This document shows positions 1,830 through 58,853 of a stretch of 64,000 nucleotides of DNA, piece after piece; within the stretch, counting starts at the first letter, position 1, and the number at the start of each line of letters is the position of its first letter. Below the pieces are notes generated by a model that made no database searches, was not told the origin of the DNA, and saw nothing but the letters and a program-made list of their open reading frames with translations. Both the position numbers and the translations under genes were made by a program. Source of the DNA: a plasmid. Location: the sequence record NZ_CP154590.1. One strand, 5' to 3'.

Positions 1830-2927
1830 ACGCGCTGGACACACCACGATGACAGCGGTTTTATCCCTTACGCCATCACCACCGGCCTTGATTACGAGGC
1901 GATGACCGAACAGCGCAAAGGCTATGAGAACTTTGTTTATCAGAACGGCGTTTACGATCTCGGCACCAAAGGTGATATGCGACGTAACGAACGTAACCTG
2001 ATGTGGAACCTCGATCCCTACATTCAAACGCACTGGCAGCTCACCTCAGCCCTGGGGCTGGACGCCGGGGCGCGCTATAGCTCGGTATGGTTTGATTCCA
2101 ACGATCGTTATGTTGTAGGTAAAAATGGTGATGATAGCGGCGAAGCGAGCTATCACAAGTGGCTTCCGGCGGCAGCGCTGAAGTATGCCATGACGCCGCA
2201 GTGGAACGTTTACCTCTCTGCCGGGAGGGGATTTGAAACGCCGACCATTAACGAGCTGTCCTATCGTCCCGATGGTCAGTCCGGGCTTAACTTTGCTCTG
2301 CAACCGGCCACTAACACCACCGTTGAAGCAGGCAGTAAATGGCAGGTGGGCACCGGGATGGCGAGCCTGAGCGTCTTCAATACGGACACGAAAAATGAAA
2401 TTGTCGTTGCCGCCAGCGACAATGGCCGTACGTCCTATCAGAACGCGGGCAAGACGCGCCGCCGCGGGGTCGAACTGGGATGGGATCAGCAATTTGCGCC
2501 CGCCTGGCGCGCCAAACTGGCGTGGACGCTGCTGGATGCGACCTACCGTGAAAACGCCGGCGATGCTATTCAGAGCGGCAATCGGATCCCGGGGATTGCA
2601 CGTAATAGCGCCTATGCCTCCTTTGGCTGGGTGCCGGAAGAGGGATGGTACGCTGGCGCTGAAGTCCGCTATATGAGCGATATTCAGGTCAACGATGCCA
2701 ATAGCGAGCAGGCTCCAGCCTATACGGTGACGGCACTGAATACCGGCTATAAATATGTGCTAGATAACTGGACCGTCGACCTCTATACGCGCGTTGATAA
2801 CCTGTTTGATAAGCGCTACGTCGGCTCTGTTATCGTCAACGAGAGCAACGGACGCTATTATGAACCGGCGCCGGGCCGTAACTATGGCGTTGGGCTATCG
2901 GTCAGCTATCAGTTTGATTCGCTGTAA
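1830..2927 (+). pseudogene. iroN: 5'-truncated salmochelin/TonB-dependent siderophore receptor (C-terminal beta-barrel part, ends ...SYQFDSL).
   Basis: The frame is open from the IS903 end through the ORF at 1902..2927. The C-terminal TonB-box-less barrel has a terminal aromatic residue. The IS903 plus truncated iroN arrangement is the known tail of ISEcp1-blaCTX-M-14 transposition units. Confidence 0.75.
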
Positions 2928-2929
2928 CA

Positions 2930-3531
2930 ATACGGCTGCCGGAGAGTGCTATTGAGGTGAGGCTCCGGCAGCGGGTAAAGGCGTTGATTCCTGGTAACAA
3001 TAAGCTGCTTATTGATGTATCAGTAAGCATGCCGGCAGCCATTGCGCTTGATATAATACTACCCCATATGAGCAAGAGTATTTTCACGGAAAAGCTAGCA
3101 GCCAATTTCGGCCTCGCGGCCTTCCCGCTTCTCAATTGAGCATATAATTTTTCCGCAGCCAAAACCTGCTCAGGTTCAGGCTTGGTCCTTACAGACTGGT
3201 ATTCAACAATCGAACCATTCTTAGCTATTGGCGTTACATAAGCACTTACCCAATAGTGGTCGCCATTTTTACAGCGATTTTTTACTAGCCCCATCCATGA
3301 GCGGCCAGATTTTAATGTACTCCACATATGCTCAAATGCAGCAGGCGGCATATCTGGGTGTCTTACGATGTTGTGAGGCTGGCCTAATAGTTCTTCCTCA
3401 GTGAAACCACTGATTTTAATGAAGTCAGGATTAACGTACGTGATATGGCTTTGAGGGGAGGTAGTCGAAAGAATATTGGCATCTTTTGGGAGTTCTAAGT
3501 TTCGACCCGTCACTGGTAAATTCTGGCGCAT
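2930..3531 (-). pseudogene. N-terminal PAS-domain part of an aerotaxis/MCP-like gene (Tn1721 orfI-like), truncated distally by the CTX-M-14/IS903/iroN unit.
   Basis: On the minus strand, a PAS-like N-terminus is followed by a hydrophobic helix. It diverges from res/tnpR as in Tn1721. The tail of the ORF overlaps the iroN end and looks like read-through. Confidence 0.45.
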
Positions 3532-3639
3532 AAGAACCTCAAGGGTTGGCTGTTTTATTTTATTGTTTTCGGCATTAAGCCCAATTTCTTGAGCGTTACG
3601 ATAAAGCTAGCATGGAAACGATAGGTGCAAGCAAGTTAA

Positions 3640-3790
3640 GGGTTGCATCGCGCATGTCAATCTAGGCTATACCCTAACTTGGCGTCAGACCATCCGGCGC
3701 TAAATCGTCAGAATAGAGTTGCCTTCCGAATTGATTGACATACGCCGTCAAGGGTCATAGATTTCTTCCTGACACATTTCCCTCAGGAGG
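3640..3790. promoter_or_regulatory. res: Tn1721/Tn21-type res (resolution) site region upstream of tnpR.
   Basis: GCTATACCCTAACT-type subsites similar to the Tn21-family res fragment also seen at 19820-19958. Sits directly 5' of tnpR. Confidence 0.4.
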
Positions 3791-3795
3791 ATACC

Positions 3796-4356
3796 TTGCA
3801 CGGTCAGCGCATCGGTTACGTCCGCGTCAGCAGCTTCGACCAGAACCCAGAACGGCAGCTCGAACAGATCCAGGTGGATAAAGTGTTCACCGACAAGGCG
3901 TCGGGCAAGGACACACGGCGGCCCGAACTGGAACGGCTGCTCGCCTTCGTGCGCGAAGGCGACACGGTCGTGGTGCACAGCATGGATCGTCTGGCGCGCA
4001 ACCTCGACGACCTGCGCCGCCTGGTGCAGGGCCTCACCCAGCGCGGCGTACGCATCGAGTTCCTTAAGGAGCATTTGACCTTCACCGGCGAGGACTCGCC
4101 GATGGCGAACCTGATGCTGTCGGTAATGGGCGCGTTCGCCGAGTTCGAACGCGCCTTGATCCGCGAGCGGCAGCGCGAGGGCATCGCGCTCGCCAAGCAG
4201 CGCGGGGCCTACCGTGGCAGGAAGAAATCCCTGTCGTCTGAGCGTATTGCCGAACTGCGCCAACGTGTCGAGGCTGGCGAGCAAAAGACCAAGCTGGCTC
4301 GTGAATTCGGAATCAGTCGCGAAACCCTGTATCAATACTTGAGAACGGATCAGTAA
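3796..4356 (+). CDS. tnpR: Tn3-family serine resolvase, Tn1721/Tn21 subgroup.
   Basis: 186 aa, [24 protein letters not shown]...[15 protein letters not shown]. Confidence 0.92.
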
Positions 4357-4358
4357 AT

Positions 4359-4460
4359 ATGCCACGTCGTTCAATCCTGTCCGCCGCCGAGCGCGAAAGC
4401 CTGCTGGCGTTGCCGGACACCAAGGATGAGTTGATCCGTCACTACACGTTCAGCGAAACC
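4359..4460 (+). pseudogene. tnpA: First 34 codons of a Tn1721-like tnpA ([33 protein letters not shown]), cut by IS26.
   Basis: The N-terminus matches Tn21/Tn1721 TnpA. The IS26 inverted repeat GGCACTGTTGCAAA begins at 4461. Confidence 0.85.
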
Positions 4461-5280
4461 GGCACTGTTGCAAAGTTAGCGATGAGGCAGCCTTTTGTCT
4501 TATTCAAAGGCCTTACATTTCAAAAACTCTGCTTACCAGGCGCATTTCGCCCAGGGGATCACCATAATAAAATGCTGAGGCCTGGCCTTTGCGTAGTGCA
4601 CGCATCACCTCAATACCTTTGATGGTGGCGTAAGCCGTCTTCATGGATTTAAATCCCAGCGTGGCGCCGATTATCCGTTTCAGTTTGCCATGATCGCATT
4701 CAATCACGTTGTTCCGGTACTTAATCTGTCGGTGTTCAACGTCAGACGGGCACCGGCCTTCGCGTTTGAGCAGAGCAAGCGCGCGACCATAGGCGGGCGC
4801 TTTATCCGTGTTGATGAATCGCGGGATCTGCCACTTCTTCACGTTGTTGAGGATTTTACCCAGAAACCGGTATGCAGCTTTGCTGTTACGACGGGAGGAG
4901 AGATAAAAATCGACAGTGCGGCCCCGGCTGTCGACGGCCCGGTACAGATACGCCCAGCGGCCATTGACCTTCACGTAGGTTTCATCCATGTGCCACGGGC
5001 AAAGATCGGAAGGGTTACGCCAGTACCAGCGCAGCCGTTTTTCCATTTCAGGCGCATAACGCTGAACCCAGCGGTAAATCGTGGAGTGATCGACATTCAC
5101 TCCGCGTTCAGCCAGCATCTCCTGCAGCTCACGGTAACTGATGCCGTATTTGCAGTACCAGCGTACGGCCCACAGAATGATGTCACGCTGAAAATGCCGG
5201 CCTTTGAATGGGTTCATGTGCAGCTCCATCAGCAAAAGGGGATGATAAGTTTATCACCACCGACTATTTGCAACAGTGCC
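4461..5280 (-). mobile_element. IS26: IS26 (copy 1, 820 bp).
   Basis: 14-bp terminal inverted repeats GGCACTGTTGCAAA and TTTGCAACAGTGCC at exactly 820 bp spacing. Identical to copies 2 and 3. Confidence 0.95.
4513..5217 (-). CDS. tnp26: IS26 transposase Tnp26 (234 aa from [10 protein letters not shown]).
   Basis: Exact IS6-family Tnp26 sequence. Confidence 0.95.
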
Positions 5281-10501: not shown

Positions 10502-12655
10502 TAAATATCTCCTTTTGGGTTGTTAATAAAACATCCAATAAGTTGACTGTGCGTGAAAAAGAAAGTTTTGTGTGATGGCGTTGAAGATCGCACCGTTAAG
10601 CTCTTATGTGGGATGGTGCAGAGCTCGACGACTACCGATAAAACGCAACCGCCGCAAACAGACAAGAAAAAGCCCCAACTGATAACAGTTGGGGCTTCAG
10701 TATTGTGATTGGTGGAGCAATAGCACCCTGAACCCAAAACCTTCTCGCTCAACCGGTAGTGGCTGATAACAACTCGTGAGGGCTATTGCGGGTTAAGCAT
10801 TTAGCGATGTCTAGGGCCAGACTGGACGTCTGAACGCAAGCCGCTGATACTGTACATAACCACAGTATCAGCGGAGGATACCCATGTCGCTGGCAAGGAA
10901 CGCCACGGCGAGTCAATCGCCCACTCAAACAAACGGTTACGAACGCCACCAACCCGACCAGACGCTGCTCTACCAGCTGGTTGAGCAGCACTACCCAGCC
11001 TTCAAAGCCTCACTCGAAGCCCAAGGTCAACACCTGCCTCGCTACATCCAACAAGAATTCAACGACCTCCTCCAATGTGGCCGTCTGGAGTATGGTTTCA
11101 TGCGGGTTCGCTGCGAGGATTGTCATCACGAGCGTCTGGTCGCCTTCAGCTGTAAACGACGCGGCTTTTGCCCTAGCTGCGGTGCCCGCCGGATGGCCGA
11201 GAGTGCGGCGCTGCTGATAGACGAAGTCTTCCCCAAGGAGCCCATTCGCCAGTGGGTGCTCAGCTTTCCTTTCCAGCTACGCTTTTTGCTGGCTCGCCAT
11301 CCCCAGCTGATGGGCCAGGTCTTGAGTATCGTCTATCGTACACTCTCAACTCATCTGATCAAAAAAGCCGGTTACACCAAAGCCTCTGCACAAACTGGCT
11401 CAGTGACTCTTATCCAACGCTTTGGCTCCGCGCTAAATCTCAATGTCCACTACCACATGCTGTTTCTCGATGGTGTCTATGCCGAAGATGACTATGGCAA
11501 GCAACGCTTCCATCGTGTCAAGGCACCCACTTACGATGAGCTGAATACGCTCGCTCACACCCTCAGCCATCGCATCGCTCGCTGCATGGAAAAGCGTGGG
11601 ATTTTGGAGCGTGATGCCGAGAATACGTGGTTGACACTGGAAGAGGGCGAAGACGATACGCTGACTCAATTACATGGTGCTTCGGTTACGTATCGCATTG
11701 CCGTCGGCCCCCAGCAAGGGCGCAAAGTCTTCACCCTGCAAACCTTGCCAGGGCGTGAGGATAAAGCCGACTCAAGCAGTCGAGTAGCCAACCATGCTGG
11801 TTTCTCGCTACACGCCGGTGTGATGGCCGAAGCGCATCAGCGGGATAAGCTTGAGCGCTTGTGTCGCTACATTAGTCGGCCAGCGGTTTCAGAAAAACGT
11901 CTGGCATTAACCGCCAATGGGCAGGTGCGTTACGAGCTCAAAACTCCGTACCGCAATGGCACCACCCATGTGATCTTCGAGCCGCTGGACTTCATCGCCA
12001 AACTCGCTGCGTTGGTACCTAAGCCGCGAGTCAACCTCACACGCTTCCACGGCGTCTTTGCACCGAACAGCAAACACCGAGTTCAAGTAACACCCGCCAA
12101 GCGGGGCAAGAAGCCCGACAAATCGGAAGGTCTCGATACTAACTGGCGTGACAAGAGTCCTGCAGAGCGCCACCGCGCCATGACCTGGATGCAACGCCTC
12201 AAGCGAGTCTTCAATATTGATATTGAAGTCTGCGAACACTGCGGCGGTCACGTCAAAGTGATTGCCAGCATCGAAGATCCGAAGGTCATTGAGCAGATTC
12301 TCAAGCATCTGAAACAGAAAACAGCCAAGGCGAATGCCGCCAAGCAGCGTGAGCTGCCACCAGAACGAGCGCCGCCACTGACTCCCAGCCTGTTCGATCC
12401 ATCACAGAGTCGTCTCTTTGACTGACGACCCCAAATCCAACACTGCTCAACACTGCCAACTTTTAAACGGGGCGGTGGGGCAGTTTGTATCTCTCGAGCT
12501 ATCAGGCTAGAGATTTTACCGCCAAATCGAACCTTATTAGAGCGGTTTAGGCTGGACCGGCAGTTAAAATTGGGGCTTGAGCGGTAAACGAGTGAGGGAA
12601 TTTCAGGTAAGATACTTCGGATGAGGAGCAAAAAGGTGGTTTATACTTCCTATAC
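10502..12655 (+). mobile_element. ISCR1: ISCR1 (IS91-like rolling-circle element). The boundaries are approximate: 2154 bp assumed from the point where sequence diverges from the 3'-CS.
   Basis: The sequence after sul1 diverges from the second 3'-CS copy at about 10502. It contains orf513. oriIS is expected about 230 bp past the orf513 stop. Confidence 0.6.
10884..12425 (+). CDS. orf513: ISCR1 transposase Orf513 (513 aa, HUH rolling-circle).
   Basis: MSLARNATASQSPTQTNGYERHQPDQTLLYQLVEQHYPAFK..., 513 aa. Confidence 0.95.
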   Translation: MSLARNATASQSPTQTNGYERHQPDQTLLYQLVEQHYPAFKASLEAQGQHLPRYIQQEFNDLLQCGRLEYGFMRVRCEDCHHERLVAFSCKRRGFCPSCGARRMAESAALLIDEVFPKEPIRQWVLSFPFQLRFLLARHPQLMGQVLSIVYRTLSTHLIKKAGYTKASAQTGSVTLIQRFGSALNLNVHYHMLFLDGVYAEDDYGKQRFHRVKAPTYDELNTLAHTLSHRIARCMEKRGILERDAENTWLTLEEGEDDTLTQLHGASVTYRIAVGPQQGRKVFTLQTLPGREDKADSSSRVANHAGFSLHAGVMAEAHQRDKLERLCRYISRPAVSEKRLALTANGQVRYELKTPYRNGTTHVIFEPLDFIAKLAALVPKPRVNLTRFHGVFAPNSKHRVQVTPAKRGKKPDKSEGLDTNWRDKSPAERHRAMTWMQRLKRVFNIDIEVCEHCGGHVKVIASIEDPKVIEQILKHLKQKTAKANAAKQRELPPERAPPLTPSLFDPSQSRLFD

Positions 12656-12726
12656 CCTCTGCCGGGCTGGTATGGCGGAGAGCTGCGCCGACACTGCGTA
12701 TCCGTGACCCACACAAAGAAGAAAAA

Positions 12727-13278
12727 ATGGTCGCTCTCCATGAGGCACTGGCGAAATGCAGTGCGGAAAACCCAGTGTTTTACGAAGATGAAGTGGATAT
12801 TCATCTCAACCCGAAAATCGGAGCTGACTGGCAGTTACGCGGGCAGCAAAAACGCGTTGTCACACCGGGCCAGAATGAAAAGTACTATCTTGCCGGTGCG
12901 CTGCACAGCGGTACGGGAAAAGTCAGCTACGTGGGCGGTAACAGCAAAAGCTCAGCCTTATTTATCAGTCTGTTAAAGCATCTTAAAGCGACATACCGGC
13001 GGGCAAAAACGATTACGCTCATTGTCGATAACTACATCATCCACAAAAGCCGTGAAACGTTGCGCTGGCTGAAAGCAAACCCAAAGTTCAGGGTCATTTA
13101 CCAGCCGGTTTACTCGCCGTGGGTCAATCATGTCGAACGGTTGTGGCAGGCACTTCATGAGACAATAACCCGAAATCACCAGTGCCGTTCAATGTGGCAA
13201 CTGTTGAAAAAGGTCCATCACTTTATGAATACCGTCAGCCCATTCCCCGGGGGAAAACATGGGCTGGCTAATGTGTAG
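12727..13278 (+). pseudogene. C-terminal DDE part of an IS630-family-like transposase (no N-terminal HTH), in the ISCR1-captured DNA.
   Basis: 183-aa ORF with a DDE_3-like C-terminus (...IVDNYIIHKS...YQPVYSPWVNHVERLW...). It lacks an N-terminal DNA-binding part. Confidence 0.45.
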
Positions 13279-13503
13279 CGGTATTAGGATCAGTTATTTA
13301 GATAATGAATGTAAGTAGGAAAATAATGACCCATAATATAAAAAAGCGAGCTCCAATACAGGCAGCTCGCAAAAGTCACTCAAGGAAAAACAGAGGGACA
13401 TACCTACTATGTAGATATGGTACTGCTGCGACATGCTACATTCTTTGATTACTGTGATAGCGTTAAATTTTCAATAAGGAGAAAATTTACAAATAGTTTG
13501 GTT

Positions 13504-13764
13504 CTATTTATATACGACAGCGGTAGCGTATGAATTATCTTGAACTCTAAGTGATGAAATTACGAAATGAGTTCCACCAATCATATCTGCTTTTTTAGAT
13601 AGCGAATTAATAATCTCCGATTGGGTTGCACTACCGGTTTTAAAGAAATTAATCTCTCCGACACGAATTGCGTTTATCGGAGTTGGTTCGTTATAAGTAA
13701 TTTCTGTCGCCGCGTAACTACTGAAAATGGGGAATAGCAATGCTAATACAAGTATACTTTTCAT
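13504..13764 (-). CDS. Small exported DUF1471 (YdgH/BhsA/McbA-like) protein.
   Basis: Signal peptide MKSILVLALLFPIFSSYA followed by the typical ~60-aa DUF1471 core. The longest ORF starts at 13806. Confidence 0.5.
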   Translation of the reverse strand: MKSILVLALLFPIFSSYAATEITYNEPTPINAIRVGEINFFKTGSATQSEIINSLSKKADMIGGTHFVISSLRVQDNSYATAVVYK

Positions 13765-13864
13765 GAACACCTCTTTAACTAAATAGTGGGTATAATAATA
13801 ACTCAAAATTTATAGAATGGATTAACTTAAAAAGACAATAGATAAACAAAAACAGACAAAGTTA

Positions 13865-14095
<231 letters not shown>

Positions 14096-14163
14096 TCAGA
14101 TTCACCGGACAGAACAAACGGTTATTTATAACAAGAGCCTAAAGAAAAACTTACAGGTGGATT

Positions 14164-15039
14164 ATGGTCAGACGTTATCTCCCCCTTAACCCGCTGCGCG
14201 CCTTTGAGGCCGCCGCCCGTCATCTCAGTTTTACCCGCGCGGCGATTGAGCTGAATGTCACCCATGCCGCCGTCAGCCAGCAGGTCAGGGCGCTGGAAGA
14301 ACAACTCGGCTGTGTGCTGTTTACCCGCGTCTCGCGCGGGCTGGTGCTGACCCATGAAGGTGAGGGATTACTGCCGGTGCTCAATGAGGCGTTTGACCGG
14401 ATTGCGGATACTCTGGAGTGTTTTTCTCACGGGCAGTTCCGTGAGCGGGTGAAAGTCGGTGCGGTGGGAACATTTGCCGCAGGCTGGCTGCTGCCGCGTC
14501 TGGCCGGATTCTATGACAGCCATCCGCATATTGATCTGCATATCTCCACCCATAACAATCATGTGGACCCGGCGGCGGAAGGGCATGATTATACGATCCG
14601 TTTCGGTAACGGCGCGTGGCATGAGTCAGATGCGGAACTGATTTTCAGTGCACCACACGCTCCGCTGTGCTCACCGGCCATTGCAGAACAGTTACAGCAG
14701 CCGGATGATGTTCACCGCTTTACCCTGCTGCGCTCATTCCGCCGGGATGAATGGAGCCGCTGGCTGGATTGTGCGGGCGGCACACCGCCTTCCCCGTCAC
14801 AGCCGGTAATGGTGTTCGATACCTCACTGGCCATGGCCGAGGCGGCACAACTGGGTGCCGGGGTAGCGATCGCACCGGTATGTATGTTCAGCCGCCTGTT
14901 ACAGTCAGGCGCACTGGTACAGCCGTTTGCCGCAGAAATCACCCTCGGCGGCTACTGGCTGACGCGGTTACAGTCCCGTACGGAAACCCCGGCCATGCAG
15001 CAATTCGCCCGCTGGCTGCTGAATACGGCGGCGGCGTAA
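14164..15039 (+). CDS. ampR: LysR-family AmpC regulator AmpR (291 aa).
   Basis: MVRRYLPLNPLRAFEAAARHLSFTRAAIELNVTHAAVSQQVRALE... Confidence 0.9.
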   Translation: MVRRYLPLNPLRAFEAAARHLSFTRAAIELNVTHAAVSQQVRALEEQLGCVLFTRVSRGLVLTHEGEGLLPVLNEAFDRIADTLECFSHGQFRERVKVGAVGTFAAGWLLPRLAGFYDSHPHIDLHISTHNNHVDPAAEGHDYTIRFGNGAWHESDAELIFSAPHAPLCSPAIAEQLQQPDDVHRFTLLRSFRRDEWSRWLDCAGGTPPSPSQPVMVFDTSLAMAEAAQLGAGVAIAPVCMFSRLLQSGALVQPFAAEITLGGYWLTRLQSRTETPAMQQFARWLLNTAAA

Positions 15040-29739: not shown

Positions 29740-30606
29740 TTAAGTTGTGACGAGCAAGGCATCACCGAGTCGAGCATAATGGCCACGCGAGAGCTTCATT
29801 CGCTCAGTGACACGACGTTCTATCTCGTCGCGCACCGAATCAAGAGTACCGAAGAAGCGGCCCTTACTGATTTCTTTCTGGAGCTGCAGACGAACCAGTT
29901 GCTCAATCTCTTTACGCGTTCGGGGAGCATCCTTACGCGCCCTGTGCCGTTTCATGCCGTGTTCATAACGTGACTTATGATACTGTCGGAAGCGTTCACG
30001 CACGAATGACCAGGCTGCACTGATAAGTTCATCTGCACCGGCGCGAGGTAGCCCTTTCTTCTCACGTTGCTTGTTCTCCCACTCGATACGGCTGCGACGG
30101 GCTGCAGCAACTGCTTCCTCAGACACTCCCAGTACCTGCCACATCAGCGGCGTGAAAGTTATGTCTGTGGGGATATTGCAGCCAATTTCTTTGTCGTATT
30201 CGGTGTTATAGGTAATGAGATTGAGCTGAGCGAGAAACTTCAGAGCCCCCGTCAGGCGGGTGATCGACAGACGTTTTTTTTCCGTGGCCAGCCCGCAGCG
30301 AATGCTCATGGTAGTAAGCGATGAACCAACGCGATTAGCCAGGGGATTAAAATAATGGCACATTGCCTGAACAGCTGCTTCCAGAGCCCGTATGCGCAAC
30401 ACTGGAGGGCGCTTTTTGCGCTCACCACGGGCGATCAGCATAGCAACCAGAGCCTGAAACTCTGCACGCTGAGTGAAGCCAACAGCTTTCTCGCGAATTT
30501 TTTCACAGAATGGCAGGGTTTTCTTTCCCTTTTCAGGAATGAACTCTGGATTCGGATTTTTTACCTGGCGGTAAAGTGTAGTAGCTTCAGAATTCTGCTT
30601 ACTCAC
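29740..30606 (-). CDS. repA: IncFII-family replication initiator RepA (RepA1-like, 288 aa, GTG start).
   Basis: ...YRQVKNPNP.F.P..G..TL.FCEK..EKAVGFT.R..F...PPVLR.RA..A.....C..Y.PLANRV..S.TT..I.CGLATE...LSITR..RAL.FL..L.LITY.TEYD...GC.IPTDITFT... closely parallels R100/R1 RepA1. Confidence 0.85.
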   Translation of the reverse strand: MSKQNSEATTLYRQVKNPNPEFIPEKGKKTLPFCEKIREKAVGFTQRAEFQALVAMLIARGERKKRPPVLRIRALEAAVQAMCHYFNPLANRVGSSLTTMSIRCGLATEKKRLSITRLTGALKFLAQLNLITYNTEYDKEIGCNIPTDITFTPLMWQVLGVSEEAVAAARRSRIEWENKQREKKGLPRAGADELISAAWSFVRERFRQYHKSRYEHGMKRHRARKDAPRTRKEIEQLVRLQLQKEISKGRFFGTLDSVRDEIERRVTERMKLSRGHYARLGDALLVTT

Positions 30607-30707
30607 TACTTCCTGCGCTTATGTTGCACAGAAGGAGTAAGCACGGAATCTCTTGTCTTTTTTCGCGCACGGGTTATACTCCCATACAGAAGCAACAACT
30701 TCTGCAT
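30606..30707 (-). CDS. Leader peptide (tap/repA6/RepY-like, 33 aa). Its stop overlaps the repA GTG start (TAGTG), indicating translational coupling.
   Basis: ATGCAGAAGTTGTTGCTTCTGTATGGG...AGGAAGTAG followed by GTGAGTAAGCAG. This arrangement is characteristic of antisense-RNA-controlled IncFII/IncB/IncI replicons. Confidence 0.6.
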   Translation of the reverse strand: MQKLLLLYGSITRARKKTRDSVLTPSVQHKRRK

Positions 30708-30776
30708 GATTTGTTAAGGACCCCGTTAATCTCGCGATGCCGCCAAGTATCTAAGATTATCGGGGTTTTTGCTTTT
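30687..30776 (+). ncRNA. copA: CopA/Inc-like antisense RNA countertranscribed to the repA leader. It has a terminal stem-loop with CGCCAA in the loop (target loop UUGGCG in the mRNA) and a U-tract.
   Basis: Promoter TTGTCT-16 bp-TATACT at 30653-30680. Stem CCCCGTTAATCT...AGATTATCGGGG followed by TTTTT at 30721-30770. The hexanucleotide loop is conserved in this replicon family. Confidence 0.55.
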
Positions 30777-30918
30777 CTGGGCTTAGTTAACTAACCTGCC
30801 AGAACCTGTCACCTTCTAAGGCGTGACAACCTAATAAATTCATTTATAACAATAAGTTCACCGACTTTATCACCACAACAATGCAGGATCAATTTTTAGG
30901 ATCTCTCCAGCACCAGGA

Positions 30919-31119
30919 TTAAGCTTCACTTCTGGAACGATGCGCTTCTGCGTCTCGTTTTAAGCTCTCGAAAAGCTCTAGTGGTACAAGATAAAACGCC
31001 GGCGCGCTACGATTCAGAATAGCAATAGCATCACCCTCTGCTGACTCGACAGTCCCTAACGGATCCCTTTTGAACTCCGTGATACCAGCGACTTTCGTGC
31101 AATGTATCGGATGTGCCAT
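30919..31119 (-). CDS. 66-aa protein with Phd/YefM-antitoxin-like sequence pattern, occupying the copB (repA2) position upstream of the repA leader.
   Basis: ...ITEFKRDPLGTVESAEGDAIAILNRSAPAFYLVPLELFESL... resembles the Phd/YefM beta-alpha-beta DNA-binding core. No toxin ORF follows. Confidence 0.45.
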   Translation of the reverse strand: MAHPIHCTKVAGITEFKRDPLGTVESAEGDAIAILNRSAPAFYLVPLELFESLKRDAEAHRSRSEA

Positions 31120-31389
31120 AACTCCTCCTGGTTTACAGATAGCACCTACGAATTATTGTATCGTAGCATACAATCAGACACTTAAAAGCATCATTAACTA
31201 ATATTATGATCGCTGATCAAACTCAGTTAAGTGTAGTTTTACATGATATAGTACATCCGCACACAGAATATACCTCTAAAATTCAAATAGATACGGCCAT
31301 TAGCGGATGATGTCTAAAATCAGTTCTTCAAAAAAAAATTCCAACTTGCTCCTCAGGTCTTAAACCTGATTTCCAACAGCAGGGAACCT

Positions 31390-32052
31390 ATGACAATCAA
31401 GAATGGTAGCCTGCAGTATGTAGCAGTAAACCAAGCCTTTCTTAGGTTATTAAAACTCCCTTATGATTATCCTATTGTAGGTAAAACATTAGACCAACTT
31501 CCTACATCCTTAGCTTACCTTTCACAGCGAATACACAATCAGGAAGAACTTGTTATGGAGCATGAAGACCAGTTCTCTTCAATCGTTACGCATCCAATAG
31601 GTGAGAGCAACTCTATACATGCTTTGTACTTCGAGTCCCGGCCCTATTATGACGATGAAGGGATCTGTTCCGGTACTATGCTTCAGGTAAGACCTGTTGA
31701 TATTTTTGGACCAGATAGCTTACTGTCGGGAGACGTTCCCAAATCGTTGGTATATAGGGTACCGTCCGAGATATTTACTAATGCTGAATGGGAAGTCATT
31801 TTTTTAATATCTCTTAAATACAGCAGGAAAATTATGTCTCGGATATTAGGGACTTCTTTAAAAGCGGTAGAACACAGAATCAGCAGATGTCTGCAGAAAA
31901 CCGGGACCGCGTCAGGGGCCGAGCTAATAGAAGTTTGCAAGAAGAATAACTGGGATGCCTATATCCCCCCTCGATTTTTAAAGCCGAGATTTCGATTATT
32001 CAGAGCTGATCCTGATGCGTATCTAGTTGACTCATCACTAAGCAAACAGTAG
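31390..32052 (+). CDS. LuxR-family transcriptional regulator with an N-terminal PAS-like sensory domain (220 aa).
   Basis: The C-terminus ...EWEVIFLISLKYSRKIMSRILGTSLKAVEHRISRCLQK... is a GerE/LuxR HTH. The N-terminus has PAS-like periodicity. Confidence 0.55.
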   Translation: MTIKNGSLQYVAVNQAFLRLLKLPYDYPIVGKTLDQLPTSLAYLSQRIHNQEELVMEHEDQFSSIVTHPIGESNSIHALYFESRPYYDDEGICSGTMLQVRPVDIFGPDSLLSGDVPKSLVYRVPSEIFTNAEWEVIFLISLKYSRKIMSRILGTSLKAVEHRISRCLQKTGTASGAELIEVCKKNNWDAYIPPRFLKPRFRLFRADPDAYLVDSSLSKQ

Positions 32053-32503
32053 TCTTCAACAGTCATAGTAAATCCTGTGACCGGGCGTGAGAACCCGTAT
32101 CTACACGTGCACATAGACACGCATAGCGTGTTTTTTTGTGTACTGAACCAGCACATCTGTGTAATGGCGGTTCAGGTAGGGCAACCGTAAGGTTGGCCGG
32201 TACCGTGTAGGCCGGTTTCTCACCCCTGCCTGGGCTGCCACCAGAGCGTGAGAACTCCGTGGTAGCCGATATCATATCTACACGGGAGCTTCATCTACAA
32301 TGCTCAAGAACTTATCAAAGAATTCTCAATCCCCCTTAGCAAATAAACTTGGCTTTCAATGCCTTGTAGCTGATGTGTTCTCTAAACAGAACGCCCTAAT
32401 CCATACCACATATCACAACATGTTCAATGGGGTTTCTCCCCATTAAGGGAGATGCATTTTACGCGTAAATTTATTACGTACTGATTTGCCAGGGGACTTC
32501 ACA

Positions 32504-32764
32504 ATGATTAATGAGAACACTATTAACGCCCTGCATAGCGTTTTTCCTGAACTTTCCAAAAAACAGTTAGAAATTGTGACTCTGTATGCACACGGAAATA
32601 CATATGAATCCATTGCTGACATTTGCAATATCTCTGTTGAAACGGTCCGATCACATCTTAAGCGAAGCACTAAGGCTCTGAACTTAAAAAGCAACGATGC
32701 AATGCGGGCAGTAATATTGTCACGCTCATATTTTTTTATGATTTCATTAATGATCACAAATTAA
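32504..32764 (+). CDS. Small LuxR/GerE-type HTH protein (86 aa from MINENT).
   Basis: ...LSKKQLEIVTLYAHGNTYESIADICNISVETVRSHLKRSTKALN... Confidence 0.5.
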   Translation: MINENTINALHSVFPELSKKQLEIVTLYAHGNTYESIADICNISVETVRSHLKRSTKALNLKSNDAMRAVILSRSYFFMISLMITN

Positions 32765-32766
32765 TC

Positions 32767-32796
32767 AAAAAATGCACCCCTTAAGGGTGCATTTTT
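32767..32796 (+). terminator. Hairpin AAAATGCACCC-TTAA-GGGTGCATTTT, terminator-like on both strands.
   Basis: Perfect 11-bp stem flanked by A-runs and T-runs. Confidence 0.5.
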
Positions 32797-33047
32797 AAGA
32801 CTTGGACTATTTACACTTTACTTTGGTTTACTGGGATAGAATTATACGCGCAGACCTTTAAGTATTGCCGCCAATTTTACTTGAGGGTCTACCCTACAAG
32901 AGCATTCTGAGCTATGAGACCCCCAATACAGCAGGCAAACTTAAGTGTTTGTTAGTAAGACTGTTAGTCGTCATGGTTGAGTATGTTCGTCCCCGTTGAA
33001 CATTGAATTATCCCGTCATGGATCAATTCTGCGCGAAGCGTTCAAAA

Positions 33048-33557
33048 ATGAATATTGAGACTGTATGTAACCAACAATGGTATCTTGCTCTCTATATTAC
33101 GGGGGGCAAAAATCGCGAGAAATTATTCGGCTGGCTACACGACAGGAGAATTACTCCCTGGACGCCATTATCCTTAACGAAAATACGTCGTGCTGATGCA
33201 CCGCATGTTTTCAGAAAAAGGGTATCTGCAGTTTTTCCTGGATATTTTTTCCTAAAAGCCAATTTTGATGTTCAAAAGATAGATACTATTAGGGCGCACT
33301 CAGCCTTCTGCGATTTTGTGAAGTTCGGTAGCCAAATCACCCCAGTGAACACAAGGGTGGTTGAAGCATTAATGAAAAAATATCCCGACCCTACCCATCA
33401 CCCTGCAGCAAGGGATGAACTGGAAGTTGCATCAAATATTTGGCTTACAAAAAGTCAGTACAAACGCCTGACACAGCTAGAAAAAATGGAACACCCAATA
33501 TCCAGGACAGCGATGTTGTTCGATATGATCACCCATGCTGATGCATGGGGGTTTTGA
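33048..33557 (+). CDS. NusG/RfaH-family specialised transcription antiterminator paralogue (ActX/TraB-like) of the conjugation regulon.
   Basis: ...QQWYLALYITGGKNREKLFGWLHDRRITPWTPLSL...VFPGYFFLKANFDVQKIDTIRAHSAFCDFVKFGSQITPV... parallels the RfaH NGN domain (WYLLYCK...PLFPNYLFVEF...TRGVSHFVRFG). Confidence 0.6.
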   Translation: MNIETVCNQQWYLALYITGGKNREKLFGWLHDRRITPWTPLSLTKIRRADAPHVFRKRVSAVFPGYFFLKANFDVQKIDTIRAHSAFCDFVKFGSQITPVNTRVVEALMKKYPDPTHHPAARDELEVASNIWLTKSQYKRLTQLEKMEHPISRTAMLFDMITHADAWGF

Positions 33558-54294: not shown

Positions 54295-54359
54295 GCCCAG
54301 TCTGACACGCCAGTTCTCCACAGCGCTTACGCGCTTCCCCCTCTATATCTTCCAGGATT

Positions 54360-57300
54360 GTGACCATGCAAAAAAGTCACCGTATATGGCTTGCCGTACC
54401 TCACGAAGAGAAGGACGACGCCATCAATGCCCATCCACGTTTGGATAATGGCCAGAAAGCACTTGAATGGGACAATGAACACCGGCTCTGGTATGCCCGA
54501 CCAGGTGCCGACCTGAACAAGTTCGAACGATGGATGCCCCGACCACACGAACTGTCGATGAATGCAGAAGACCCGGTAACAGAGTTTGCACAAAAACTCG
54601 AAGAAGCAGGGCTGATGGTTAAAGGGCTGCCCGTAATGGATGGCAGCCTTCAGCGTGTACCGACGAAACAGGACAGGAAGGGTTCCAAAAGCGGAGCTTA
54701 CAAAGCATACCTGGACGGGCGCCCTGCCGGATGGTATCGCGATTATCGCAGCGCCGACGCTAAACCAACGCAGTGGGTGTTTTCAGGTGGTGGCGAGATG
54801 GACCCGCTTGCGCGCCTACATCTCCGGGCTCATGCCCAGCAAACCCGTGAAGACAATGCACGTGCTCTTGAGCTGCAGTATAACCGTCAGGCGGAATATG
54901 CCGCCCGATACGTTGACCGGTACCCGCAGGCTACAACAAGCACCTATCTGACCCGCAAGGGAGTAGAGGCCGCTCCGGGTATAAGAATCAACGAAAAACA
55001 AGAGCTTGTTATCCCCTTCAGCAACGCGCATGGCGACATTCGTTCTTACCAGCGTATTCCACTTACCGGTGGGAAAGACGCCCGGATCCTTAAAGACAGT
55101 GAGAAAACAGGTAACTGGTTTGCTCTCGGGACCCCGCAGAATGGCAAGCCGCTGTTGTTTGCTGAAGGATATGCCACAGCAGCCTCCATACATGAGGCAT
55201 CAGGCCTGCCGGTACTGATGACTATTGATGCGGGAAACATGATTGCCGTTGGTCAGAACGCCCGTGCCGTCTGGCCAGACAGTCAATTTATCTTCTGCGC
55301 TGACAACGACCATCAATTAAAAAACCCGCAGACTGGTGAGCCAGAGAATAAGGGCATCCTAAGTGCCACCAAGGCCGCCGAACTGACGAACGGAGAGGTA
55401 ATAGCACCAGCATTTACACCGACGGAGCTTGAACAAAACCTTACTGACTTCAACGATTTAATCCTCAGCAGAGGAAAAGACCTCGCCAGGCATCTCATCA
55501 ATGTTCAGCTTCACGCTATGGGGATAGAAACCCCATTCAACACAAACTCACAAACCCGTAACGCCTTTGTAGAGGGCGGTCTCGTCTTCACCCCTGTTCA
55601 GGAAACTGCTATGGATAATCATGAATCTCCGGATATCGCACATATATCCGATAATGACATCGCCCGTGAACATACCGTCAGTGAGTTGGCCGAGGCCACT
55701 GCAGCAGAAAAACCAGCGACGGGGGCACCAGTGCAGCCTCCGGAAAACCAGGCGTCACATAAAGCCGGGCGTGAAACGATAACTTTGTTTCATGGTTCAC
55801 CTGCAGCCTTCAGTGCCATTGATTCTGAAAAAATAGGATTAGGTCAAAACCTCGTGGGGAGAGGTTTTTATACTGATACGTCTGTTTTAGGCGTGCACTA
55901 TGTAATGGAGGAAATAAATCATAAGGACTATCACGTATATGAATTAGAGATCCCTTCTGAGTCTGTTATTTTAGACCGTTGGGATAATTCCACATTAACA
56001 GAAGAACTGCGGGCACGAATCAGAGAAGCTGGAAATTCGGGGCATCAGCAACTCAATGAAAACGAGAGCATTTCTCGCTCCGAGCTTGGAAATAAACTCG
56101 CTGACAGCAAGGCGATAGATGACACCTTTCTTAACTTCGCCAGCAGCCCTCAGGGGATGAGCATTCTGAAAGAAGCAGGCGTTGATGCATTAAAAGACAA
56201 TAGTTATGTCGCTATTATCAATACGGATTTAATTGATAATATTCGTTTGCGCTCTGCAGGTGGAAATATAAAAGCAGAAATGACGAAATATATAGATAAG
56301 GCATTAAGTAACGTTGCTCAGGATGCATCAAGATTGTCAAATATATTGCAAAAGGAACAGAATCTTTCAATACATTATGAAGCCATCCGTTCTGAACTAA
56401 TAAATCTTACAGTGGCTCAAAACCGGCCCGAAGAAGCTGAAAGATTGACAGCTCTACTTACACATACATTCGTTGAAACTATTGATAGTCCCCCTGATAG
56501 AAAAACAAATATTACCCCCTTAAACCGACTATATGCGGAGGCAATAAGAAGCCTTGACCTGAATCACGATGATAGCGCTGCGCAACTGGGTCGCATTATT
56601 GATAGTGCTGTTGTAAACATAAACCCTGACCAGAAATTCGTTGCTGAACCCAATAAACCAGAGCCGGCAATTCCTGCTAACGAACAGAATCCCGCGCCGA
56701 CTGAGCCGGAACAACCTCAACCTGCAGATGTACGCGATGAGCCATCCCCCATGCCCCCAATAGAATCTGACGTTTTAATTCCTGATACGCAGAGCAACCC
56801 GGATGGGACGCTCGTGACATCTCCCGATGATATCGGTCAGAGTAGCCAGAGCGTCGCCGAAGCAGGATCGTATGCACCGTTACCTGACCTGGATGATTAT
56901 GCAGACATACGCGCGCAAATGGACGACCCACAGTTTGGTGAATGGATGCACAGTCAGTCTGACGACTTACCCCATAAGCCTGCTCAGGAACAATTTACAG
57001 CCCACGAACTGCAGGAAACGGATGAACAGGCTGTAAAACCTGAGGCTGCATTGCATGATAAAAACGCTGAGCCCACGGCGCCGGTCTCGTCTGAATTACC
57101 AATCCCTCCACAGTCCCCCGGAGCACCATTAACCGGGAAAAAACAGGAACAGGCACAGACAGCCAACGCAGATGCAGACATGCCAGAGCTGAATCCAAAC
57201 TGGACGAAAACTGCAGAGAATGAGGTGAATGAAGCGGATGGGCTTGTCTATGGACCGCGAAGACCGGAACCGCTGCAGCGGGAAGATCTGGATAAAATCA

Positions 57301-58853
57301 TCAAAGCCTTGTCAACAGAAGAGCAGCGCGACAACACGGTGCTCTACCGCCTCGACGGGGAAGATGCCTTTCGCGATCTCGGCAACCGCCTCGAAATGTG
57401 TAACGGTGCAAGTCAGGACAAACGAAGGGTACTCGCCGCGCTGGCGGTTGCATCACGCTTTTACGGCGGCGTGGTGGAGCTAACCGGCAGTATGGAGTTT
57501 AAAGAGCAGGCTATGCGGCTCATTATCGAAAATGACCTCGATATCCGCATGAAGTTGCCTGCACAGCGCGCTCAACTTGAGGCACTTCGGCAACAGATGG
57601 GGACGACCAGTGATTCAATCACAACGCATATACCTACGCCAGACCTGAATCGGCAGACACCATCACCTGATGCCGCACCACCACAGTCATCGGCAACAGC
57701 CGCACCTGAAGCTGTTTCCTCTAACGCGCCAGGTACACCAACACCCCCTGCATCACCGAACCCGGTATCACAGGCACAAGAACCCGGCGCGCCTCAGCCG
57801 GCGTTTTCATCCTCTACTGAGGCTGTCGCGTCAAAGGCTGCCGACAGTATCCGGGTCCCGGAAATGCCCGCTGAACCAGCGCCCTCCGCACTGAAGCCAG
57901 GACAAAGCATCACGGCGGTATTGAAAAACTTTGGCGAGGCGACCTACGAAAATAAAGAGAAAAAGGGTGGGAGCTTCTTTATCGAGCTACAGAACCGTGG
58001 AGGGAGTCATACCTACTGGGGGCAGGATTTAAGAGAACTTATCGAAAACCACAAAACCGGTGATGTGGTTACACTGACGCTTAACTCCCGTGACAGCTGG
58101 CATGTACCAGGAGAGGAAAATGGACGCGTAAAAAATAACTGGTCATTGACATCCGCCTCGACGGGCCTTGCCGTGGCGCACGATCGGCCAGAGCAGGGGC
58201 AACCCCTGCAAGTTTTTCCGGTCGATACGTTTGGCCGTCTCACTCAGCAAATCCGTCAGGCCTGGCCCGAGTACACCACAGACCTGAAGTTGCCACCTCG
58301 CCTGGAAGAACGGCAGTTTTATCTGGGTGAAGACAGGCACCCGGTGAAGTCACCGGTAGCTGCAGCAAGCATTTTGCCACCATCCACAGACGCCCCAGAC
58401 AGGTTGATACCCGTTATGGCCTCCATGGACACACAGTCAAACCAGTTAGACCTGCTGCTTGTACAGTCAGCGGGGGAACACCTGCAGGGTATGGTGCGAC
58501 TGGATGGCACACTGTATCCGGCACTGGCCACACCAACTACCGACAATAGTCAGTTGGTTATCAATGCCATCACCGACGACGGCCCCCGCTTTGCGGGTTA
58601 CGGGCAGGCGGTGAATTTCGAACCCGACGGCACCACCCGTGCCGCACCTCAGCTGATGAAGTTCCACCTGAAAGGTCGGGAAGAGGATACACCGCTTCCT
58701 GCCCGACTCTACACACCGGAAAAACAGGCAGACACCCTGTTCCAGCGTCTGGGTTTTGAACAGACCTGGAAACAATGGGATGACGCACGAAAGCCGGAGG
58801 GCAGACAGGAAAAGGCGCTTCATCAGGAACACTCCCACAGCCCCGGCCGCTAA
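54360..58853 (+). CDS. sog: Sog-like conjugative DNA primase (1497 aa) with N-terminal zinc-binding/TOPRIM primase domains, a compositionally foreign central insert, and a long acidic Pro/Ser/Thr-rich disordered C-terminal region.
   Basis: TOPRIM signature ...LLFAEGYATAASIHEASGLPVLMTIDAGNM...FIFCADNDH... Located between traK and traL, exactly as sogL is in IncI1. Confidence 0.8.
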   Translation: MTMQKSHRIWLAVPHEEKDDAINAHPRLDNGQKALEWDNEHRLWYARPGADLNKFERWMPRPHELSMNAEDPVTEFAQKLEEAGLMVKGLPVMDGSLQRVPTKQDRKGSKSGAYKAYLDGRPAGWYRDYRSADAKPTQWVFSGGGEMDPLARLHLRAHAQQTREDNARALELQYNRQAEYAARYVDRYPQATTSTYLTRKGVEAAPGIRINEKQELVIPFSNAHGDIRSYQRIPLTGGKDARILKDSEKTGNWFALGTPQNGKPLLFAEGYATAASIHEASGLPVLMTIDAGNMIAVGQNARAVWPDSQFIFCADNDHQLKNPQTGEPENKGILSATKAAELTNGEVIAPAFTPTELEQNLTDFNDLILSRGKDLARHLINVQLHAMGIETPFNTNSQTRNAFVEGGLVFTPVQETAMDNHESPDIAHISDNDIAREHTVSELAEATAAEKPATGAPVQPPENQASHKAGRETITLFHGSPAAFSAIDSEKIGLGQNLVGRGFYTDTSVLGVHYVMEEINHKDYHVYELEIPSESVILDRWDNSTLTEELRARIREAGNSGHQQLNENESISRSELGNKLADSKAIDDTFLNFASSPQGMSILKEAGVDALKDNSYVAIINTDLIDNIRLRSAGGNIKAEMTKYIDKALSNVAQDASRLSNILQKEQNLSIHYEAIRSELINLTVAQNRPEEAERLTALLTHTFVETIDSPPDRKTNITPLNRLYAEAIRSLDLNHDDSAAQLGRIIDSAVVNINPDQKFVAEPNKPEPAIPANEQNPAPTEPEQPQPADVRDEPSPMPPIESDVLIPDTQSNPDGTLVTSPDDIGQSSQSVAEAGSYAPLPDLDDYADIRAQMDDPQFGEWMHSQSDDLPHKPAQEQFTAHELQETDEQAVKPEAALHDKNAEPTAPVSSELPIPPQSPGAPLTGKKQEQAQTANADADMPELNPNWTKTAENEVNEADGLVYGPRRPEPLQREDLDKIIKALSTEEQRDNTVLYRLDGEDAFRDLGNRLEMCNGASQDKRRVLAALAVASRFYGGVVELTGSMEFKEQAMRLIIENDLDIRMKLPAQRAQLEALRQQMGTTSDSITTHIPTPDLNRQTPSPDAAPPQSSATAAPEAVSSNAPGTPTPPASPNPVSQAQEPGAPQPAFSSSTEAVASKAADSIRVPEMPAEPAPSALKPGQSITAVLKNFGEATYENKEKKGGSFFIELQNRGGSHTYWGQDLRELIENHKTGDVVTLTLNSRDSWHVPGEENGRVKNNWSLTSASTGLAVAHDRPEQGQPLQVFPVDTFGRLTQQIRQAWPEYTTDLKLPPRLEERQFYLGEDRHPVKSPVAAASILPPSTDAPDRLIPVMASMDTQSNQLDLLLVQSAGEHLQGMVRLDGTLYPALATPTTDNSQLVINAITDDGPRFAGYGQAVNFEPDGTTRAAPQLMKFHLKGREEDTPLPARLYTPEKQADTLFQRLGFEQTWKQWDDARKPEGRQEKALHQEHSHSPGR

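Follow-up and report, generated by a model that had tools for sequence, protein, structure and literature searches.

A mobile cassette in the linker of a Sog-type conjugative primase encodes a divergent homologue of ADP-ribosyltransferase-clan domains and may be a delivered effector

Introduction

What is encoded by an AT-rich stretch in the middle of a conjugative primase gene, and could its product serve the plasmid in the cell that receives it? The question is raised by plasmid sequence NZ_CP154590.1, of which a stretch of 64,000 nucleotides, referred to here as the window, has been analysed. The window contains a complete IncI-type transfer region, and the sog-like gene of this region encodes a polyvalent primase related to the Sog proteins that IncI plasmids transport into recipients. 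A sequence-only reading of the locus had described the AT-rich stretch, at positions 55780–56690 of the window, as a laterally acquired in-frame domain that resembles ADP-ribosyltransferases (ARTs). Among the protein-modifying domains predicted in the polyvalent proteins of conjugative elements, ARTs are the most common (PMC5512222). The comparisons reported here indicate that the stretch belongs to a cassette exchanged between primases, and that the product of the cassette, called the module below, is a divergent relative of families from the ART clan.

A low-GC cassette inside the sog-like gene

The guanine-plus-cytosine (GC) content of the gene, calculated in 200-nucleotide windows, is 0.49–0.58 in the flanks and drops to 0.33–0.43 at about 55800–56600, in agreement with the sharp compositional change that had been described earlier. 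Segment 55780–56690 has a GC content of 0.408, compared with a window mean of 0.528 (standard deviation 0.053, z = −2.2), and 2.9% of 900-nucleotide windows are as low. The third codon positions of the module have a GC content of 0.33, compared with 0.54 elsewhere in the gene, and in three different hosts the overall GC content of the module is lower by 0.11–0.14 than that of the remaining gene. Inside the gene, the trough is a real and distinct feature; in the window as a whole it has a counterpart, because the repA/regulatory region at 30.3–33.8 kb has a GC content about as low. This second low-GC stretch (29740–33557, about 0.43) holds a rep gene of the IncFII_RepA family (29740–30606, minus strand), a PAS-domain open reading frame (ORF; 31390–32052), and a NusG-like ORF (33003–33557).

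The sog-like genes of plasmids from Enterobacter (L001, 81% amino acid identity) and Leclercia (L002, 70%) lack residues ~466–770, and the flanks of the cassette are 79–87% identical at the nucleotide level despite its absence in these relatives. When the gene is compared with that of L001 by blastn, only gene positions 1–1063 and 2370–4494 align, leaving one block:

55423..56728, plus strand: block without nucleotide homology to L001, with 1306 nucleotides here in place of 369 nucleotides there (blastn).

The segment is also absent from SogL of IncI plasmids, which has a low-complexity, acidic, proline-rich linker at the position of the 300-residue module. The difference in length fits the ~240 residues stated beforehand: the 1497 codons of the window gene exceed the 1255 residues of SogL (PMC6112013) by 242.

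Twenty-one independent complete plasmid records contain the segment, always in frame and intact, with nucleotide identities of 91–100%; Citrobacter accounts for 19 of them and Enterobacter for 2. The records come from several countries and species, and the segment also occurs in a draft genome of Citrobacter pasteurii and in metagenomes. The 21 in-frame records together with the draft genome exclude an assembly artefact. The cassette block is not bordered by direct or inverted repeats, and the cassette is therefore not a transposon-like insertion. Insertion of a transposon or insertion sequence was rejected on the grounds that there are no terminal repeats and no target duplication and that the segment is in frame. 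An intein was rejected as well, given the lack of splice-junction residues and the position of the module at the N-termini of other proteins. According to these comparisons, the segment of low GC content is a cassette that was exchanged laterally and sits in frame, as the sequence-only reading had proposed.

The sequence surrounding the cassette is a mosaic. The part of the window at 55455–55613 (residues 366–418, ...GLVFTPV...) is closer to the distant IncI Sog than to the nearer relative L001, which has a deletion opposite these residues. Just upstream of the module, resolvase-type HTH_7 domains are found in the Sog-like protein of Erwinia amylovora plasmid LA637P2 (L004, residues 415–457) and in another Sog-like protein (P0004, residues 419–460). 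With HTH_7 beside the module in these two proteins, the linker between primase and LPD7 thus acts as a slot that gathers several cassettes.

Spread of the module among primases

The module has a very narrow distribution. When 1.84 billion representative proteins were scanned in full with HMMER, five clusters were identified, and a tblastn search of all PLSDB plasmids identified 25 records, out of the 4325 plasmids that carry this primase. There was no match to the module in 5,426 complete Escherichia coli genomes, none was found by a scan of the IMG/VR viral contigs, and a word-indexed homologue search returned only fragments. Outside Citrobacter and Enterobacter, the module is encoded in sog-like genes of MPF_I plasmids from Pectobacterium, Rahnella, and Erwinia amylovora, and in the gene for a TraC-like primase of an IncU plasmid with an MPF_T system. 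The order of primase, module, and LPD7 is constant across all primase-linked homologues.

The module of the window protein shares 66–75% amino acid identity with its homologues from Rahnella, Erwinia, and IncU (44% for the helical part in IncU), whereas the primase and C-terminal parts of the same proteins are 25–42% identical. Therefore, the module moves between primases of the Sog and TraC types. The ratio of nonsynonymous to synonymous substitutions (dN/dS) in the core of the module is 0.06–0.28, which shows purifying selection, and ~35 residues are invariant across module sequences that span 32–100% identity.

Two proteins other than primases carry the module at their N-termini. One of them (P0006, 798 residues) has an IcmW-like gene on the same contig, and its neighbours include an M23 peptidase and, two genes away, a 1265-residue polyvalent protein with ART-PolyVal and LPD1 domains; the observation covers 10818–14615 and 1522–2082 of this contig (L023). 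The second, a P0007-like protein from an alphaproteobacterial metagenome-assembled genome, is encoded next to an ankyrin-repeat gene.

Relationship of the module to ART-clan families

The module consists of two parts:

55767..56279, plus strand: ART-PolyVal-like core of the module, residues 470–640 (sub-threshold Pfam matches, hhalign, MAFFT).
56280..56669, plus strand: C-terminal helical extension of the module, residues 641–770, a constant companion of the core.

The core contains, in order, TLFHGS with H478, GRGFY with Y504, Y514, the strand HVYELEI, a helical insertion (residues ~537–605), AGVDALK, and S615-Y616 with the strand SYVAIIN. The module of the window gave no match in scans of Pfam, NCBIfam, PHROGs, or PADLOC. 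When nine module homologues were scanned singly, seven had sub-threshold Pfam matches to DUF3990 (PF13151; best E 0.003) and six to ART-PolyVal (PF18760; best E 0.015), all of them within the first ~60 positions of the profiles. Both families belong to the ADP-ribosyltransferase clan of Pfam (PMC7955679).

Profile alignments extend the relationship. An hhalign comparison of the module alignment with 40 DUF3990 proteins gave 96.7% and E 4.4e-10 over 40 columns, which cover the pattern TLYHG[ST]..F..ID...GRGFYT. The comparison with a phage-type protein (L014) and its IMG/VR relatives gave 95.1% and E 3.3e-8 over 76 columns; this protein was recovered by a metagenome scan seeded with the module and matches ART-PolyVal with 39.8 bits against a threshold of 31.2. 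In the relaxed and in the global mode of hhalign, the module and the phage ART-PolyVal domains are collinear to the C-terminus over 149–150 columns, and a MAFFT alignment that includes the 60-bit ART-PolyVal domain of L023 has the same register. The elements common to the module and ART-PolyVal are strand 1 with its histidine in YHG[ST], the tyrosine of G-x-G-x-Y in strand 2, and the strand Y.YE..L in the first half, followed by the helical insertion, G[VF]D.L, and last strands of the form x-Y-[VI]-x-[IF] in the second. The profile matches and the alignment that remains collinear to the C-terminus argue that the module is a full-length, very divergent homologue of ART-PolyVal. Thus, homology to ART-clan families is supported at the level of sequence profiles, and the part of the earlier proposal that named an ART-like domain stands. 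The part that likened it to PARPs and diphtheria toxin does not, because the nearest families are ART-PolyVal and DUF3990 from the H-Y-D clade of polyvalent proteins.

The module resembles ART-PolyVal domains also in the kind of its host protein, which is multidomain and transferred together with DNA. It differs from them in scoring below the gathering threshold, in having an invariant serine for the catalytic Asp/Glu and an additional invariant tyrosine (Y514), in its obligatory helical extension of ~130 residues, and in its restricted occurrence. Homology to DUF3990 is clear over the N-terminal ~40–60 residues (TLYHG[ST]..F..ID ... GRGFYT ... Y.YE, profile positions 1–61), whereas the C-terminal DUF3990 signature, H.YD.V.GPTANDDT with LP.Q.YF, is absent from the module. 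Proteins of the DUF3990 family are small and stand alone (~180 residues), and they occur mostly in Firmicutes and metagenomes; the domain is also found as the toxin tip of Rhs and type VI secretion system proteins (PMC4524185).

A single-sequence structure prediction of the module had a predicted local distance difference test score (pLDDT) of 46, and an AlphaFold2 model calculated from eight sequences was confident in the helical parts only. A search of the PDB with the DUF3990 profile returned only a weak match to macro-domains, probably due to chance. The match, of profile positions 119–165 in the C-terminal region to the C-terminal half of the O-acetyl-ADP-ribose deacetylases 1spv and 5cb3 (E 0.13), is nonetheless curious for an ART-clan family.

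The putative NAD+ site

The signature of ART-PolyVal domains is a histidine in strand 1, a tyrosine in strand 2, and an aspartate in strand 5 (Iyer et al. 2017, PMC5512222). The corresponding positions of the module, which would form a site for nicotinamide adenine dinucleotide (NAD+), are:

55791..55799, plus strand: H478-G479-S480, strand-1 NAD-site motif (conservation in module and ART-PolyVal alignments).
55869..55901, plus strand: Y504, the strand-2 tyrosine in GRGFY, to Y514, forming Y-x9-Y (conservation).
56202..56207, plus strand: S615-Y616, with the serine in the catalytic Asp/Glu column of ART-PolyVal (MAFFT; hhalign, relaxed and global).

H478 and S480 are invariant in all module sequences, and the histidine is also invariant when ART-PolyVal domains are included. 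Within the module family, neither Y504 nor Y514 varies, and Y504 is nearly invariant across both families. The residue that precedes the strand-5 tyrosine is aspartate in the phage proteins L014, L016, and L018, and glutamate in the L023 domain. From this alignment, the module family is described as an H-Y-S variant of the ART site.

The peptides on which the ART comparison was originally based are present, TLFHGS at residues 475–480 and NSYVAIINTDLID at residues 614–626, and the distances from H478 to Y504 (26 residues) and to D623 (145 residues) were given correctly; however, the two tyrosines are separated by nine residues and not by ten. The assignment of a catalytic role to the acidic residue at the end of the last strand has to be abandoned. 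D623, which is part of the NTD motif, is unconserved, as the IncU homologue has DTS there (IIDTS), and D626 gives way to E or G in other homologues; the catalytic column coincides with S615.

A 1083-residue phage-type polyvalent protein (L015, 4297–7548) has an N-terminal half of an ART-PolyVal-like domain at residues 569–615, which scores 23.2 bits against 31.2. This half appears to be separated by ~420 residues from the likely last strand, THNYVIYDD, in which an asparagine precedes the tyrosine. The strand lies outside the joint alignment, and its asparagine was assigned to the S615 column by eye.

The Sog-type host protein and its putative internal start

The gene that carries the cassette and its conserved domains are:

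54360..58853, plus strand: sog-like polyvalent primase gene (Pfam, PHROG, traK/traL synteny, alignment to IncI Sog).
55158..55481, plus strand: Toprim primase catalytic domain, residues 267–374 (Toprim_3, 25.6 bits, slightly below the gathering score of 27.2).
57327..57593, plus strand: LPD7 domain of the Sog backbone, residues 990–1078, 3' of the cassette slot (Pfam, 47 bits; gathering score 27).

The ORF is continuous over 1497 codons when counted from GTG 54360, as was stated before. In GenBank record CP057321.1, which is 99.9% identical, the gene starts at ATG 54366 and encodes 1495 residues under the product name "DNA primase". The Pfam scan also identified DUF5710 at residues 8–60, and PHROG DNA primase families match residues 142–386 at 1e-56. 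The gene is flanked by traK and traL, and the transfer region of the window includes the thin-pilus (pil) operon, the shufflon with PilV and its recombinase, traE–Y, excA, and trbABC. About 1800 of the 4325 plasmid records in which the primase domain was found are IncI1/K/B/O-type plasmids of E. coli and Salmonella, with 66–69% identity in this domain. The 1255-residue Sog of an IncI-gamma/K1 plasmid (L008) aligns with the window protein end to end, with the exception of the linker. SogL and SogS of the IncI1 plasmids R64 and ColIb-P9 share with it the position between traK and traL, the architecture from DUF5710 and Toprim to LPD7 and the C-terminal part, and an internal methionine at the start of SogS. 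The domain order, the gene position, and the IncI-type (MPF_I) surroundings identify the host protein as a genuine Sog-type primase.

Between traK and sog, an additional gene of ~540 nucleotides is present in module-bearing Citrobacter relatives (L006 and L007, both at 726–1265) and in the IncI-gamma/K1 plasmid (L008, 3860–4411), where its annotation places it in the phospholipase D family. At this position (54322–54359), the window has no more than a short intergenic gap. In many plasmid tables derived from RefSeq, the intact 4.5-kb ORF has no coding sequence or one for the downstream LPD7 part only, which suggests that the gene was omitted, split, or labelled a pseudogene in these annotations (NZ_CP030079.1, NZ_OM506550.1, and others).

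IncI plasmids produce SogL of 1255 residues and, by internal reinitiation, SogS of 844 residues, and both are transported to the recipient (PMC6112013), which Sog proteins reach in hundreds of copies (PMC8406263). From the difference of the two lengths, SogS starts at Met412 of IncI Sog. The window gene has a candidate for an equivalent start:

55600..55613, plus strand: putative internal in-frame start of a SogS-like product (Shine-Dalgarno motif AGGAA at 55600–55604, ATG of M418 at 55611–55613).

M418 aligns with Met412 of the 1255-residue IncI Sog, and AGGAA lies 7 nucleotides upstream of ATG 55611. A methionine with an AGGA-like motif is found at this position in all six homologues inspected, inside a linker that is otherwise poorly conserved. 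A short product initiated at M418 would have the module ~57 residues from its N-terminus. Since the module is encoded just downstream of M418, it would be part of the long as well as of the short Sog product. By analogy with the IncI proteins, this particular Sog protein may be translocated as well, and delivery of the module into recipients is likely.

Discussion

The explanation that we prefer, to which we assign a probability of about one half, is that the cassette encodes a mobile effector carried by Sog, with a divergent ART fold that likely binds NAD+ and acts in the recipient. Residues ~466–770 would comprise a domain with an ART-PolyVal/DUF3990-type fold and the helical extension, inserted where a variable linker connects the Toprim primase with LPD7. 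Because Sog is exported in hundreds of copies in IncI systems, the module would most likely reach the new host before plasmid genes are expressed. There it would most likely bind NAD+ by the intact pocket of the histidine, Gly-Ser, and the two tyrosines, and then act on a target of the recipient, favouring establishment of the plasmid or counteracting defence. A functional analogy is provided by Alt of phage T4, an enzyme that is delivered with the DNA and modifies host proteins before gene expression (PMC5512222); however, Alt is an R-S-E clade enzyme packaged in the virion, and a sequence relationship to the module was not detected. The mode of action that we favour is mono-ADP-ribosylation without a catalytic acid of its own, as in PARPs that lack the glutamate. 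Eukaryotic PARPs without the glutamate are still mono-ARTs. Within the same explanation, the module may instead bind without catalysis. A specific function is favoured by the NAD-site residues, which are intact, by the invariant serine, by the purifying selection, and by the effector-like gene contexts.

Several observations weigh against this explanation. None of the module sequences reaches a Pfam gathering score: the best DUF3990 match has 17.2 bits against 32.2, the best match of a module homologue to ART-PolyVal has 16.5 bits against 31.2, and the module of the window protein itself has no ART-PolyVal match at E ≤ 1. Searches of the PDB with the module by phmmer and by profile gave no relevant match, and the pLDDT of the core is below 50 in the AlphaFold2 model. 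The C-terminal half of the alignment to ART-PolyVal is not significant by itself (E 0.12), and the assignment of the serine therefore relies on collinearity and on the agreement of two methods. Finally, S615 takes the place of the catalytic Asp/Glu, and the S-Y pair is invariant in every module sequence. Because the serine in this column is invariant, classical ART catalysis may be lost, and the missing acid makes the claim of an enzyme uncertain.

The same serine is an argument for an ART-derived pseudo-enzyme, which would retain the fold and perhaps a pocket for NAD+ or ADP-ribose and serve as a binding protein, decoy, or scaffold without any transfer reaction. In the recipient or in the donor, such a protein could, for instance, keep a host protein or a nucleotide signal sequestered. 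The alternative acid that had been proposed, D623, is unconserved, strong purifying selection shows that the domain is still needed, and the constant helical extension could provide an interaction surface. However, the histidine, Gly/Ser, and both tyrosines of the NAD site are invariant, which is unusual in fully degenerate pseudo-ARTs, an invariant serine suggests a specific chemical role and not drift, and PARPs show that loss of the glutamate is compatible with transfer. We regard a pseudo-enzyme as possible, although rather unlikely.

It is also conceivable, if improbable, that the replacement of the acid by serine marks a new functional class, which would either carry out a different NAD+-dependent chemistry or bind NAD+ or a signal derived from ADP-ribose stoichiometrically. 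Loaded on Sog beforehand and delivered at hundreds of copies, it would disarm NAD+-linked immunity, with Thoeris, SIR2-type, and ART-type defences as candidates, before the plasmid is expressed.

A structural spacer without activity, in which the ART-like motifs would be remnants, would suit a loosely constrained linker whose length and sequence differ widely among Sog homologues, most of which work without the module. The low dN/dS, the residues that are invariant across the family, the repeated exchange between backbones, and the occurrence of the module outside primases contradict such a role, and between distant carriers the module is far better conserved than the catalytic primase domain. 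We consider a spacer very improbable.

Slightly less credible still is the enzyme of the PARP/diphtheria-toxin type that the sequence-only reading had suggested, with an H-Y-Y-E/D arrangement and D623 or D626 as the acid that ends strand NSYVAIINTD. The order and spacing of the motifs agree with it, and GRGFYTDTSVLGVHY resembles, by eye only and with no tool result, the Tyr-Tyr region of PARPs. However, neither aspartate is maintained in the homologues, the alignments to ART-PolyVal place the catalytic column upstream of this strand end, and the H-Y-E triad of PARPs and diphtheria toxin is not present in the module, whose acid-equivalent position is a serine. PARP and toxin families gave no Pfam match at E ≤ 10 and no PDB match by sequence or profile. 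An assembly chimera or sequencing artefact, which had been named as an outcome that would overturn the original proposal and for which only the abrupt change in composition speaks, is already refuted by the intact, in-frame copies in independent plasmids, the C. pasteurii draft genome, and metagenomes.

Within the literature searched, no paper was found on an ART-like domain in a Sog primase or on a characterised member of ART-PolyVal. We conclude that the module is a divergent and new H-Y-S variant of a theme already known, that of ARTs in polyvalent proteins. Against that literature, the following appear to be new: the divergent family, invisible to current libraries; its H-Y-S site; its obligatory helical extension; and its conduct as a swappable cassette in the Sog linker, for which plasmids with and without it occur naturally. 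To our knowledge, Sog is among the few proteins exported in bulk from donor to recipient, and it has been assigned no enzymatic cargo.

Closely related plasmids with and without the cassette constitute a natural experiment on which effectors conjugative plasmids inject, and why. The module offers an experimental handle on the prediction from 2017 that the ARTs of polyvalent proteins act on the new host, and the H-Y-S variant of the active site is of interest for ART enzymology itself. It also exposes a gap in annotation, namely a real domain family that is not seen by Pfam, NCBIfam, or PADLOC. If the module modifies a target of the recipient or blocks its defence, the host range and establishment of resistance plasmids of Citrobacter and Enterobacter would be affected. 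If the serine does define a class of its own that is directed against NAD+-linked immunity, Sog would be a delivery vehicle for swappable anti-defence cassettes.

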